A DNA stretch of 42,960 nucleotides from Escherichia phage vB_EcoP_P64441. This document shows, piece after piece, positions 20,490-24,682 of the stretch; within the stretch, counting starts at the first letter, position 1; every line of letters starts with the position of its first letter. The position numbers and the translations under genes are program-made. Below the pieces are notes generated by a model. It ran no database searches, was not told the DNA's origin, and saw nothing but the letters and a program-made list of their open reading frames with translations. The stretch lies in the sequence record PQ847473.1. One strand, 5' to 3'.

Positions 20490-21071
20490 TTATTCGCTTA
20501 CATTAACCCAATCAGGACGCTCACCCTTACCGCAGTAAAAGTCAATCAGGTCTAGTAAGCGTGGATAATACTTCAGCGAACTCTTACCGTCCATTTCCGC
20601 AACCTGGCGCTTACTGAAGCTGCGCCACTCTGCTGCCGTATGCTGCTGACATCCTACACGCACTATGTCATTACAGATACTAATGAAGTACGTTTCTCCG
20701 TATATAATGACAGTCTTGGCGCCGCGCAGGTCAGCGCGGCGCAGGTTAGCGCTGCGCAGGTCAGCTTCGCGCAGGTCAGCGTCGCGCAGGTCAGTGCCGG
20801 TCAGGTCAGCGCCGCGCAGGTCAGCGCCGCGCAGGTCAACGTCGCGCAGGTCAGCGCCGCTCAGGTCAGCGCCGCGCAGGTCAGTGCCGGTCAGGTCAGC
20901 GCCGCGCAGGTTAGCGTAGCGCAGGTTAGCGCCGCGCAGGTCAACGTCGCGCAGGTTAGCACTGCTCAGGTCAGCGTCGCGCAGGTCAGCGTCGCGCAGG
21001 TTAGCGCGGCGCAGGTCAACGCTGTGCAGTCTTCCTAACTTATACTTTTCGCAGATTTCTTGATAGTTCAT
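20490..21071 (-). CDS. Pentapeptide-repeat protein 2 (about 22 A(D/N)LxG/R-type repeats plus a roughly 75-aa non-repeat C-terminal domain)
   Basis: '[56 protein letters not shown]...' is a continuous pentapeptide repeat as in Qnr/MfpA DNA mimics. Encoded by a 15-bp tandem DNA repeat. The N-terminus is paralogous to 27205..27741. Confidence 0.8.
20718..21030. repeat. 15-bp tandem repeat array (coding; pentapeptide repeats)
   Basis: Units such as 'gcgcaggtcagcgcc' / 'gcgcaggttagcgcc' repeated about 20 times. Confidence 0.9.
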
Positions 21072-21619: not shown

Positions 21620-22807
21620 TTAAATTACCATCTCCCCTTTAAAGGACTTACCAATCTCACATTCAGCGGGAAACTTAACTTCAGACAGTATGCCAAAGTT
21701 AGGCCACAGCTGTAGCATCCTATCACGGGCTCCTTCCATAACGTTTTTGATGAGCTTACCCGCCTTACGGGCCGTCTCTTCGTCAGCACAATCTATGTAC
21801 AAACAGTCATGGACGGTAACCAGCAAACACCATTTACCCCCCATCCAATTGTCAGCTATACCAGCCCTCATAGCCATTCCGGTTGCAATAAGCATAAGCA
21901 GGGAACCTGATCCTTGAAACGGATAGTTAGCCATCTCTGTGGGCTTAAAGTCCATTACCTGCTTACCTTCGCGCCACACCGGCTTCTGACGGAAGCGGTA
22001 GCGAGTACCGCAAGGCGTAGTGAAGTAGCCCTCGCGATAGATACGCCAGCTGCCGTCATCTGCTTGTTCACGGCGTATAGGCTCCAGCAGCGCAGTACGG
22101 TTTACTTCAGCTGCAATGACATCCCTGTACTTAATAGACTCAGGGAATAGTGCCTCCTCGTTAGCTAAGAACTTCTCAGCGTCGGCTAAGCTAGCACCTG
22201 AGGCGAACGCCAGTCCTTTAGCGGATGCTCCATATTGTGCTGCGAAGCTGAAGGTTTTGATGGCTGTTCGCTTCTTCTTCCATCCTTTATGGTCCGGTGC
22301 ATCCAGGTTATGGCAAAGCTCGTAGACTTCTTCATAAGGCATACCTTCTTGGAATGCTAGACGATAGCAGTGCATATCCGTACCGGCTTCAAGCAAGCTC
22401 AGTAATTTCTTATCACCAGTGATTACACAGCCCATTACAACCTCCATAGCTGAGTAGTCACACTGTGCAATCATACCCTGCTCACCATAGCGGCTACGCA
22501 GAATCTGCTTAACCTTAGACTCACGCGGCAGCTGCTGCATGTTCGGGTTAGATGTTGACAGGCGTCCGGTAGTAGTTGAGCAGTGATTCGACCTGTGGTG
22601 AATGATGCCAGAACCATCTGCTGATGTAGGGATGACGTACGGCAGCATGCCCGTCACCTTACGCAGACTGCCATCCTTATTAGTCTCACGTACTTCATAG
22701 AAGCCGAGGTCCTTCTGGCGTGTAGTCATTTCTTTGTATGTTTTGAAGAAGTCTGAAGCTAACTTAGCCATCTTGTTCCATCCCAATAAAATAATGTGCA
22801 AGGTCAT
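21620..22807 (-). CDS. DNA polymerase (family A), polymerase-domain ORF
   Basis: 'GRLSTSNPNMQQLP' (pre-motif A), 'CDYSAMEVV' (motif A, DYSxxE), 'RTAIKTFSFAAQYGAS' (motif B), 'VTVHDCLYID' (motif C, HD). Overlaps the upstream exonuclease-domain ORF by 44 nt in the +1 frame. Confidence 0.8.
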   Translation of the reverse strand: MTLHIILLGWNKMAKLASDFFKTYKEMTTRQKDLGFYEVRETNKDGSLRKVTGMLPYVIPTSADGSGIIHHRSNHCSTTTGRLSTSNPNMQQLPRESKVKQILRSRYGEQGMIAQCDYSAMEVVMGCVITGDKKLLSLLEAGTDMHCYRLAFQEGMPYEEVYELCHNLDAPDHKGWKKKRTAIKTFSFAAQYGASAKGLAFASGASLADAEKFLANEEALFPESIKYRDVIAAEVNRTALLEPIRREQADDGSWRIYREGYFTTPCGTRYRFRQKPVWREGKQVMDFKPTEMANYPFQGSGSLLMLIATGMAMRAGIADNWMGGKWCLLVTVHDCLYIDCADEETARKAGKLIKNVMEGARDRMLQLWPNFGILSEVKFPAECEIGKSFKGEMVI

Positions 22808-23915
22808 TCATTGCGTCCATTCCTGTGCTGTACACAGGGCTACCATCCGCTAATGTTTGAGCACCTTTGTATTCACCGCGGTCTCCGTACTTCTCACGTA
22901 GAGACTGAGGTAGGTCCTGAATATTAACCAGCCCGTCGAAGCGGTACAGGCGTTCACCCCACTTCATAGCTTGCTCGTCAGTGTCTACTTTTATGAACTT
23001 AGGCATACCCTTATTACGCCCAGACTTATACACCCCGTCCTGTACTTCCTTCTTAATGTATTTAGGTGGGTCATAAGGAACCTTGCACTTGTACTTAACC
23101 GTGCCGCCATACACTAAAGCGGACATATGATAACCGCTATTCCATTTAAACTCGAAGCCCTCTGGCAATTCTGGCAAGAATGTCTGAAGTAACTCCCGCA
23201 GATTCCGAATAGCGTCCTCCTGCTCCTTCTGATTAGCTCTGGCTGTAGGCATATCAACGTACACGCCATTGAACTCACAGTATGCCAGAGCTGCGACTGC
23301 CTCCATCCTTTCCCAGACCATAGGCATCTGTCCACGTTCCGCAAATACTGCGCATTGCCCGTAGAAGCACAGCGCTGTGTTGACTATGTCACCGTTAGGC
23401 CCTGTTAAGTATTCATGTAGTAGCATAGGGTCAATGTCTGCTGTCAGAACCCCTTGCTGCCATAGTAGCTTAACGCCGTCGACTTTGTGTGACCCGCCAT
23501 ACTTAGGGGCAGTCTCATCTAGTGACGGGTAAAGATTCTGGAAGTCGCTGGCAATGTACTCGCCCTGCATAGTATCAAAGACTCGACCTCCTCGTCTAAG
23601 GAACGACTCGAACTGCTCACGGGCAAAGGTCAGCGCCCAGCTAATCTCGTACGCTGCGTTGTGCGCTACGATTAACCACGTATCATCCTGAATAGGTAGC
23701 CACTGCTTAGGGTCAGCTGCTAAGAAATCAGTTCGGGATTCATAGCGTACACTCTGCACCTCGCTGCACTGTACAGTCCCATCCGGCATAGTCCTATCGA
23801 TGCGGAAGCCTGATTCTACGATGTAGTTATCAGGGCAGTACGGAGTTGCGACCCCGCCGTAGTACGGATGATTTTGAGTTTCAATATCCCAAATTAGAAT
23901 GCTACTCATTTCCAA
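22764..23915 (-). CDS. DNA polymerase (family A), N-terminal 3'-5' exonuclease-domain ORF
   Basis: 'LIWDIETQ' is an Exo I (DxE) motif. Contiguous with the polymerase-domain ORF. The called start at 23915 is TTG; a likely ATG start lies at 23909 (MSSILIWDIET). Confidence 0.7.
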   Translation of the reverse strand: MEMSSILIWDIETQNHPYYGGVATPYCPDNYIVESGFRIDRTMPDGTVQCSEVQSVRYESRTDFLAADPKQWLPIQDDTWLIVAHNAAYEISWALTFAREQFESFLRRGGRVFDTMQGEYIASDFQNLYPSLDETAPKYGGSHKVDGVKLLWQQGVLTADIDPMLLHEYLTGPNGDIVNTALCFYGQCAVFAERGQMPMVWERMEAVAALAYCEFNGVYVDMPTARANQKEQEDAIRNLRELLQTFLPELPEGFEFKWNSGYHMSALVYGGTVKYKCKVPYDPPKYIKKEVQDGVYKSGRNKGMPKFIKVDTDEQAMKWGERLYRFDGLVNIQDLPQSLREKYGDRGEYKGAQTLADGSPVYSTGMDAMNDLAHYFIGMEQDG

Positions 23916-24256: not shown

Positions 24257-24682
24257 CTATACTACGGCTTTCCACTTCTTACCAGTACGTGCCTCACATA
24301 CTGTAGCAGGGTCTACTCCGAATTTAAGGGCTAATGCCCTACCTCCAAACTCAGGATGTCGCGGCACATAGTTCTCTCGAATGTAACGTACTGCATCCTC
24401 AGTAAGCTTAGATATGTAGTGCTGACTTCCTTTACTCATACGCCCCTTTCCTTGCATATCCTTCATGTTATCATCCTGACTACCTAACCTTAAGTGTTCA
24501 GGATTAACACATCTTGGGTTATCGCAAGTGTGCATCACTACGCTACCTTTTATCTGGCTGACTGGAATCTGCTTATTAAAACAGTAGGCCAGCCTGTGCA
24601 GCATTACCTGTTCCCCTTCCCAATACCCATTACCATAACCAGCCTTATTACCTTTCTGATTATGCTCTATGCAATTACTCAT
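24257..24682 (-). CDS. HNH homing endonuclease
   Basis: 'LHRLAY...VVMHTCDNPRCVNPEHLRLGSQDDN' is a classic phage HNH motif. Inserted between the helicase and DNA polymerase genes. Confidence 0.75.
   Translation of the reverse strand: MSNCIEHNQKGNKAGYGNGYWEGEQVMLHRLAYCFNKQIPVSQIKGSVVMHTCDNPRCVNPEHLRLGSQDDNMKDMQGKGRMSKGSQHYISKLTEDAVRYIRENYVPRHPEFGGRALALKFGVDPATVCEARTGKKWKAVV

Follow-up and report, generated by a model that had tools for sequence, protein, structure and literature searches.

We identified the replicative family A DNA polymerase gene of Escherichia phage vB_EcoP_P64441 (PQ847473.1) as a true "gene in pieces", carried by two adjacent, overlapping cistrons and explained neither by a sequencing error nor by a frameshift. 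The whole 42,960-nucleotide (nt) stretch that was analyzed is referred to as the window; the polymerase region occupies positions 21620-23915 and lies on the minus strand, as do all polymerase features given below. We refer to the upstream cistron (N-half) as polA-N and to the downstream cistron (C-half) as polA-C. Contiguous orthologues of the gene exist in relatives (KP34, phi1_066009, P0057, and P0030), and the window has two conserved cistrons, each with its own stop and start. No homing endonuclease gene was found between the halves in the window, where the overlapping cistrons leave nothing between them. The polymerase is very probably encoded genuinely as two chains, most likely produced by translational coupling and assembled as a heterodimer.

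Boundaries and overlap of the two cistrons

The listing of open reading frames (ORFs) confirmed the coordinates of 2 minus-strand ORFs reported in an initial annotation, at 22764..23915 (383 amino acids [aa], TTG start) and 21620..22807 (395 aa, ATG start). The 44-nt overlap described there, with the downstream ORF in the +1 frame, holds for the open frames but not for the genes. The N-half begins with MSSILIW in all homologs, corresponding to ATG 23909, and the C-half begins with M(A/S/T)K/N..ASxFF in all homologs (MAKLASDFF in the window), corresponding to ATG 22771; because these are the homolog-supported starts, the actual conserved overlap is 8 nt. With these boundaries, polA-N (22764..23909; 381 aa, 43.4 kDa) is supported by the ORF list, the start shared with homologs, an exact-sequence look-up, and matches to polymerase families of PHROG, and it contains the 3'-5' exonuclease domain, the N-terminal part of the polymerase domain, and the thumb as far as its tip. 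The polA-C cistron (21620..22771; 383 aa, 43.2 kDa), supported by the Pfam DNA_pol_A model, an alignment to Taq polymerase, and the start shared with homologs, contains the second long thumb helix, the TGRLS motif, and motifs A, B, and C of the catalytic palm and fingers. The exact 381-aa and 383-aa products were also called independently in other public assemblies.

At the junction, the stop/start overlap ATGGCTAA (22764..22771) places the polA-C ATG over the last sense codon and the TAA of polA-N, and this ATGnnTAA form is kept in the window, in the relatives L012, L009, L010, and L011, and in Escherichia phage vB_EcoP_PAS7. The 36 nt of additional open +1 frame upstream of the supported polA-C start (22772..22807), the source of the 44-nt figure, are not conserved. 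They hold a usable start only in the window and in its 99%-identical relative L012; in L010 and L011, a TAG closes the +1 frame 10 codons upstream of the polA-C ATG, and in PAS7 and L009, the frame is open without an in-frame start codon before the conserved ATG. This segment is probably not translated as part of polA-C, as judged from the comparison of homologs. Shortly before the ATG, all lineages share an identical run, TATTTTATTGGGAT (14-15 nt); it was considered as a cis-element and dropped, its conservation being unexceptional: the gene has 5 other conserved runs of at least equal length, with runs of 17-32 nt among them, and local identity stands at the 75th percentile.

Family A identity and catalytic motifs

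We found that polA-C matches Pfam DNA_pol_A (PF00476) with an E-value of 6.7e-30 and 104.7 bits (cut-off 34.3), covering profile positions 101-379 of 381. A Pfam scan of polA-N at E < 0.01 gave no match, to an exonuclease model or to any other, and polA-N does match polymerase PHROGs, for example, phrog_9556 at an E-value of 1e-106. On the phrog_17 profile, polA-N and polA-C cover the neighboring, nonoverlapping positions 668-912 and 931-1234, respectively. Since the 2 ORFs thus cover adjacent parts of one profile, the matches are not due to chance, and by sequence comparison the two halves together represent one family A polymerase. Database copies of polA-N bear no protein name.

The motifs of polA-C comprise TGRLS (22526-22570), motif A CDYSAMEV (22439-22462), motif B RTAIKTFSFAAQYG (22229-22270; RxxxKxxxFxxxYG), and motif C VHDC (21803-21814); motifs A and B and the VHD of motif C align to their Taq counterparts. 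In the window, motifs A and C retain their catalytic Asp and motif B its R/K/F/Y residues. In polA-N, Exo I DIE lies at 23880-23888, and an Exo II-like HNAAYE, with Glu replacing the usual Asp, and an Exo III-like Y-x6-D were read from the sequence, which has no Pfam exonuclease match. The initial annotation had singled out HDC in place of HDE in motif C. The substitution is present, as VHDC, but it is not peculiar to this phage: the glutamate after the motif C Asp is also missing in PAS7 and Escherichia phage ECO104 4-5-2 (HDS) and in KP34-type and more distant homologs (HDA), with HDA in 11, HDC, the form of the window's sub-clade, in 3, and HDS in 1 of the 15 sequences scored. T7 RNA polymerase has HDS at the motif C position. 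HDC is a minor variant of a family-wide absence of the glutamate, neither a sign of inactivation nor a reason against family A membership. A structure model of the naturally fused relative P0030, predicted with AlphaFold2 (AF2) and compared with PDB entries by Foldseek, matched DpoZ, Pol I, T7 gp5, and Bst at probability 1.00 with template modeling scores (TM-scores) of 0.3-0.39, a comparison at the level of the fold, without residue-level mapping.

Position of the break in the thumb

The two ORFs had been labeled as an exonuclease-domain ORF and a polymerase-domain ORF, labels that do not fit the evidence from PHROG, the alignments, and the AF2 model, which place the break inside the thumb and not at the boundary of the two domains. 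Besides the exonuclease, the polA-N cistron encodes approximately the initial third of the polymerase domain, comprising the N-terminal palm segment and the greater part of the thumb. We compared relatives across the junction, as the initial annotation had suggested, and the fused polymerases of KP34 (gp20, 786 aa) and phi1_066009 (785 aa), which are 56-67% identical to both halves, are colinear with them and align continuously except for approximately 12 residues that are extra in the split clade. These residues read HYFIGMEQDG* / MAK, approximately 10 of them ending polA-N and approximately 3 starting polA-C. The clade-specific tail HYFIGMEQDG (22767..22796), delimited by the alignments, does not occur in fused KP34-type polymerases.

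The break directly follows the conserved PVYST-x-x-DAM-x-x-LA and precedes FF-x-x-Y-x-E-[LM]-x-x-[RL]-[QE]-KD-x-G. Farther downstream, GML-x-YVIP...TGRLS aligns to EGLLKVVRP...TGRLS of Bst, and polA-C aligns to Taq from residue 53 onward. We take the motifs flanking the break to correspond to Taq TSAAVLEALREAHPIVEKILQYRELTKLKSTY, the thumb tip that connects the short H1/H2 helices with the long helix I, and we presume the flanking helices to be H2 and I of Pol I on the basis of the S-T-x-x-x-x-[LM]-x-x-L-A and TGRLS landmarks and the Taq and Bst sequences; in profile searches against PDB sequences, alignments began only at the helix that follows the junction. The AF2 model, made on the natural fused relative P0030, is of moderate quality (mean predicted local distance difference test [pLDDT] score 76, 73-79 near the junction, and poor at residues 437-497), with an exonuclease domain above 90. 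In this model, the junction is a short loop (approximately residues 377-381) between helices 364-376 and 382-400, and a beta-rich thumb insertion with long strands occupies residues 269-324. The break lies in a loop between two thumb helices.

A second variable position of the thumb was observed after PYDPPKY[IV]K (window approximately 23062-23070; N-half residues approximately 281-283). Approximately 23 extra residues are present there in PAS7 and KP34, other insertions occur in P0032 and P0009, and none is present in the window or ECO104 4-5-2. The long beta-strands of the AF2 model (residues 269-324) fall in this region.

Conservation of the split and states of the junction in relatives

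Of the options raised in the initial annotation, a genuinely split two-chain polymerase is borne out by the recurrent junction, the polA-C cistron's own invariant ATG, and purifying selection. PAS7 is annotated with 2 "DNA-directed DNA polymerase" coding sequences (CDSs; WMX18793 and WMX18794) overlapping by 8 nt, and the same junction was found in L012 (99% identity, an independent run), L009 (71%), and L010 and L011 (69%, independent JGI and ENA assemblies). The lengths of approximately 55 protein clusters that share 66-99% identity with the N-half are 378-416 aa, and the C-half clusters at identities of at least 82% are all 383-384 aa. The ratio of nonsynonymous to synonymous substitution (dN/dS) was 0.05-0.11 for both halves, with synonymous sites near saturation (proportion of synonymous differences, pS, 0.4-0.75). 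Given this recurrence and the low dN/dS at saturated synonymous divergence, the split has been inherited and maintained over a long time under purifying selection, which also speaks against a decaying gene.

Five states were identified at this one polymerase site. The polymerase is fused without an extra peptide in KP34, phi1_066009, P0057, and P0060, and it is fused with the peptide retained as an internal loop in P0030 (ADYFISMGKDDHASGFF, loop DYFISMGKDD), which has 4 nt fewer at the junction than the split forms, including the TAA. Overlapping split cistrons are found in the window, PAS7, and most of the clade. In ECO104 4-5-2 (L002), a 66-codon ORF (L002 approximately 2945-3148) lies in a segment of approximately 190 nt between the halves, with an ATGA-type overlap with each half, and has on either side a copy of an imperfect 9-nt direct repeat, ATGA(G/C)TAAG, by which the stop/start overlap is duplicated; the 66-aa product had no PHROG match. 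The fifth state, found in L007 and L008, has a free-standing 153-aa HNH_3 gene between the halves (phrog_99, E-value 5e-50).

The HNH proteins of L007 and L008 are 76% identical to each other, and their C-halves begin with (V)SLAQFF, at the same position as MAKLASDFF of the window. L007 is split by the HNH gene, whereas its sister P0057 (100% bootstrap, 87% identical) is fused. Within approximately 20-30 residues of the junction, L007 and L008 are 88-100% identical, compared with 30-75% elsewhere, and L007 and P0057 are only 12-70% identical in the same flanks. Because the pattern near the junction, where L007 resembles L008, reverses elsewhere, where L007 resembles P0057, the HNH element is mobile and the junction flanks are a co-conversion tract, as homing predicts. 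No group I intron was detected around the HNH insertion of L007 and L008 by the same search that found an intron in ECO104 4-5-2. The fused P0030 was placed inside the split clade at only 40% bootstrap, in a tree whose deeper bootstrap values are unreliable owing to rooting, and this placement is no proof of re-fusion.

Further interruptions were observed elsewhere in the polymerase gene. The C-half of ECO104 4-5-2 (L002 3356-4042) is interrupted at TGRLSASNP/NMQQLP by a group I intron (RF00028, 51 bits, E-value 9e-12) that carries a 180-aa HNH ORF (3468-4010); the window has no such intron. Fused KP34-type relatives with 477-aa ORFs (P0072) end at the same TGRLSASNP/NMQQLP motif and seem to use the same site. 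Dozens of related polymerase ORFs (P0057-P0114, 551-588 aa) stop within motif B, at SFA/AQYG, and in L006 (1742-2266), the motif B stop is followed by a 147-aa HNH ORF. Motif B is a third interruption hot spot in the polymerase gene.

Alternative explanations for the two reading frames

An indel of sequencing or assembly that artificially broke a single polymerase gene in the window was among the options first considered. Small indels can switch the junction between states, as the 4-nt difference between fused P0030 and the split forms indicates, but the junction is identical in the independent run of L012, the exact proteins of both halves recur in other assemblies, and the same architecture is found in PAS7, in the 69-71%-identity lineages with saturated synonymous divergence, and in the approximately 55 clusters with half-length N-parts, so we assign this explanation virtually no probability. 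It is also highly improbable that the gene is nonfunctional or decaying in a phage that uses the host polymerase, or that one half functions alone, for example, as a stand-alone exonuclease. The HDC of the C-half and the lack of a Pfam match for the N-half could be read in that way; however, dN/dS stays low for both halves even between deeply diverged lineages, the residues named above (catalytic Asp in motifs A and C, R/K/F/Y in motif B) are preserved, the missing glutamate is common to the fused and presumably functional KP34-type enzymes, and the split has lasted across an entire clade of lytic phages that includes several isolated in culture.

If ribosomes underwent a programmed +1 frameshift late in polA-N, a single fused polymerase of approximately 87 kDa would result as a main or minor product. 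Points in favor are the +1 frame of the second ORF, open for 44 nt in the window, the clade-wide conservation of the 8-nt overlap, and the continuous chain of the naturally fused P0030, which shows that passage through the junction peptide is viable. We nevertheless consider a programmed frameshift very unlikely. The last sense codon before the TAA is variable, GGC in the window and GAG in relatives, and neither re-pairs in the +1 frame; neither a shift-prone codon nor a conserved stimulator was found at the junction, and the prfB-type signature (conserved P-site codon, re-pairing, and stimulator) is absent there. Further, the polA-C ATG is invariant, which a frameshift does not need, and in ECO104 4-5-2, L007, and L008, the halves stand 190-470 nt apart with another gene between them, so that no single shift fuses them. 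Joining of the halves after translation by a split intein, or splicing of the mRNA as a group I intron, is barely conceivable. Intein halves need roughly 100 and 35 aa, far more than the residues added at this junction (approximately 10 ending polA-N and approximately 3 starting polA-C), and an intron would have no place between cistrons that overlap. So-called "fractured genes", which combine split inteins with endonuclease genes, are known (PMC2677866), and the polymerase gene of ECO104 4-5-2 does carry a group I intron at another site (RF00028), but an Rfam search around the window junction gave no element and no match at E <= 1, whereas the same type of search found the ECO104 4-5-2 intron, which serves as a positive control.

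Proposed synthesis, assembly, and origin

We propose that ribosomes ending polA-N would re-initiate at ATG 22771 by translational coupling, giving roughly equimolar products. By analogy with the split family B polymerases of Aeromonas phage 25 and PhiKZ, the two chains of approximately 43 kDa would associate noncovalently, by way of the paired thumb helices and the palm that they share, into a heterodimeric polymerase-exonuclease, and they would have to interdigitate, with the outgoing thumb in one chain and the returning thumb helix in the other. With less certainty, the break may be what is left of an insertion, at a position that HNH homing endonuclease genes are actively invading in related phages; the inserted element would mostly have been lost since, leaving approximately 12 extra codons with the stop and the start. 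Reading the junction as the remnant of such an insertion is plausible, though a conjecture.

Several points weigh against this proposal. Equal synthesis of the two chains, their assembly, and their activity are predictions from the sequence. ATG 22771 is preceded by a weak Shine-Dalgarno sequence (GGGATGG, at a distance of 7-13 nt), and initiation would therefore depend on coupling. No endonuclease gene lies at the junction in the clade of the window, and because the 10-residue tail has no demonstrable similarity to the HNH gene of L007 and L008, the relic origin is deduced only from the shared position. The split would be explained equally well by a 4-nt insertion into a pre-existing loop, as suggested by the difference from P0030, in which case endonuclease genes may later have invaded other lineages at the same permissive site; with P0030 placed at 40% bootstrap, the change may have run from fused to split or the reverse. 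A match of approximately 10 nt, TTTATTGG-AT, between the window junction and the ends of the L007 and L008 HNH genes was seen by eye and dropped, being in a different frame and compatible with chance.

It is doubtful that the break at the thumb tip is selectively maintained and not merely tolerated, with the scar of approximately 12 codons destroying the HNH target and the thumb tip possibly taking on a new role. If so, the phage would be immune to cleavage by the HNH homing endonuclease that invades the same position in relatives, the chain ends newly created where the thumb grips the DNA could alter processivity or dock another replisome protein, and the enzyme would be an obligate heterodimeric family A replicase, split for a functional reason.

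Comparison with known split enzymes

PAS7 resembles the window in gene order (helicase, HNH, small ORF, polA-N, and polA-C), in the break point, and in the 8-nt ATGnnTAA overlap; its tail reads NYFIGMEENE against HYFIGMEQDG in the window, and the halves are approximately 78% identical in nucleotides and 84-87% in amino acids. It differs in its 23-aa thumb insertion and in having HDS in place of HDC. A literature search on PAS7 found no discussion of its split polymerase. The polymerases of the Klebsiella phages KP34 (gp20) and phi1_066009 are orthologous and likewise lack the Glu of motif C (HDA), but they are single polypeptides without the junction peptide of approximately 12 residues.

In the Aeromonas phages 25 and 44RR, the family B polymerase is split into gp43A and gp43B, with a seg endonuclease gene or a short spacer between the halves (PMC2988022). 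Activity and co-purification of the two phage 25 halves have been shown (Petrov, Ratnayaka and Karam 2010, reviewed in PMC2988022); the split NrdA of Aeh1 is active as well, and the same review asks if the endonuclease caused the gp43 split or invaded an existing one (PMC2988022). As in the window, a replicative polymerase is split into 2 cistrons relative to close relatives and the same cause-or-invader question arises, but the Aeromonas enzyme belongs to family B and is broken at another position of the fold, and the cistrons of the window overlap without a spacer. The split family B polymerase of PhiKZ is a stable 1:1 complex of 2 subunits (PMC13648687). The nrdA gene of Aeh1 is split by mobE, and its halves are reported to assemble through interaction domains derived from the mobile element (PMC3045599). 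Like the polymerase of the window, it is a split essential enzyme, in Aeh1 split by a free-standing homing endonuclease gene and reassembling from 2 chains; unlike it, it is a different enzyme, and mobE is still present in Aeh1, whereas the window has no endonuclease gene at the junction. The HYFIGMEQDG tail could possibly be analogous to the Aeh1 assembly domains.

Within Autographiviridae, the family A polymerase of the Acinetobacter phage phiAB1 (Friunavirus) is split into gp18 and gp20 by a free-standing HNH-AP2 gene, gp19; unlike in the window, the endonuclease gene is present, and the break falls after approximately residue 286, upstream of the window site and possibly in the same region as the variable thumb insertion site. 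For PhiM1-like Autographiviridae, earlier work noted split ORFs, both with endonuclease genes and lacking them (PMC6115819). Family A polymerases of T7-like or podophage type in 2 ORFs are also known, from annotation, in the OM43 phages MEP401/402 and an uncultured marine cyanophage lineage, with a small unknown ORF between the halves of MEP401 as in ECO104 4-5-2. These are distant lineages, likened to the window by the two-ORF layout alone, and their authors suspected an intron. No biochemical study of a split family A polymerase was found in the literature searched.

Gene neighborhood and nearest relatives

The GenBank record closest to the window is that of PAS7 (OQ921331; Autographiviridae, Slopekvirinae), with approximately 78-80% nucleotide identity. 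In the window, a Toprim primase, a DnaB-like helicase, an HNH gene, 2 small ORFs, polA-N, and polA-C follow one another, with endonuclease VII and a single-subunit RNA polymerase farther along, an order typical for KP34/phiKMV-like phages. Four of the 5 successive gene junctions from primase through polA-C are stop/start overlaps of 4-17 nt, so the polA-N/polA-C junction resembles any other cistron boundary of the operon. The HNH endonuclease gene between the helicase and the polymerase (24257-24682; 141 aa; phrog_6254, E-value 9e-29) overlaps the helicase stop by 4 nt. PAS7 and ECO104 4-5-2 have an additional HNH gene immediately after polA-C, whereas the window has a 272-nt gap there.

Approximately 550 nt downstream of the polymerase, the window encodes a 193-aa pentapeptide-repeat protein (20490-21071, minus strand; Pfam Pentapeptide, E-value 4e-38), and the repeat DNA is open on both strands. 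Its counterpart in PAS7 lies on the opposite strand and is annotated, probably wrongly, as "modular polyketide synthase". Because DNA mimicry is possible for pentapeptide-repeat proteins, this one could conceivably act against a host DNA-binding enzyme. We also observed that GenBank records OR847098, OR848392, and OR850875, named "Listeria phage LM 4-11-1", "Listeria phage LM 4-14-1", and "Salmonella phage S.Kent 1-2-1", gave the same identity, E-value, and bit score as ECO104 4-5-2, whose own record is flagged UNVERIFIED_ORG. The Listeria and Salmonella host names probably reflect sample carry-over and not true hosts.

Implications

Split replicative polymerases are already documented, and PAS7 already carries a two-CDS annotation; points of note here are the precise break site at the thumb tip and the natural series of junction states in this clade and its relatives. 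Automatic annotation would label polA-N "hypothetical", despite an exonuclease domain that is modeled with confidence in the fused relative P0030 and despite its part of the polymerase domain. Both ORFs should be named as subunits of one polymerase and neither merged nor flagged as a frameshift or a pseudogene. For protein engineering, the series marks where a Pol I-type enzyme tolerates a cut, and, as a set of junction states at one site of a family A polymerase, it could serve the study of how essential enzymes survive invasion by mobile genes.

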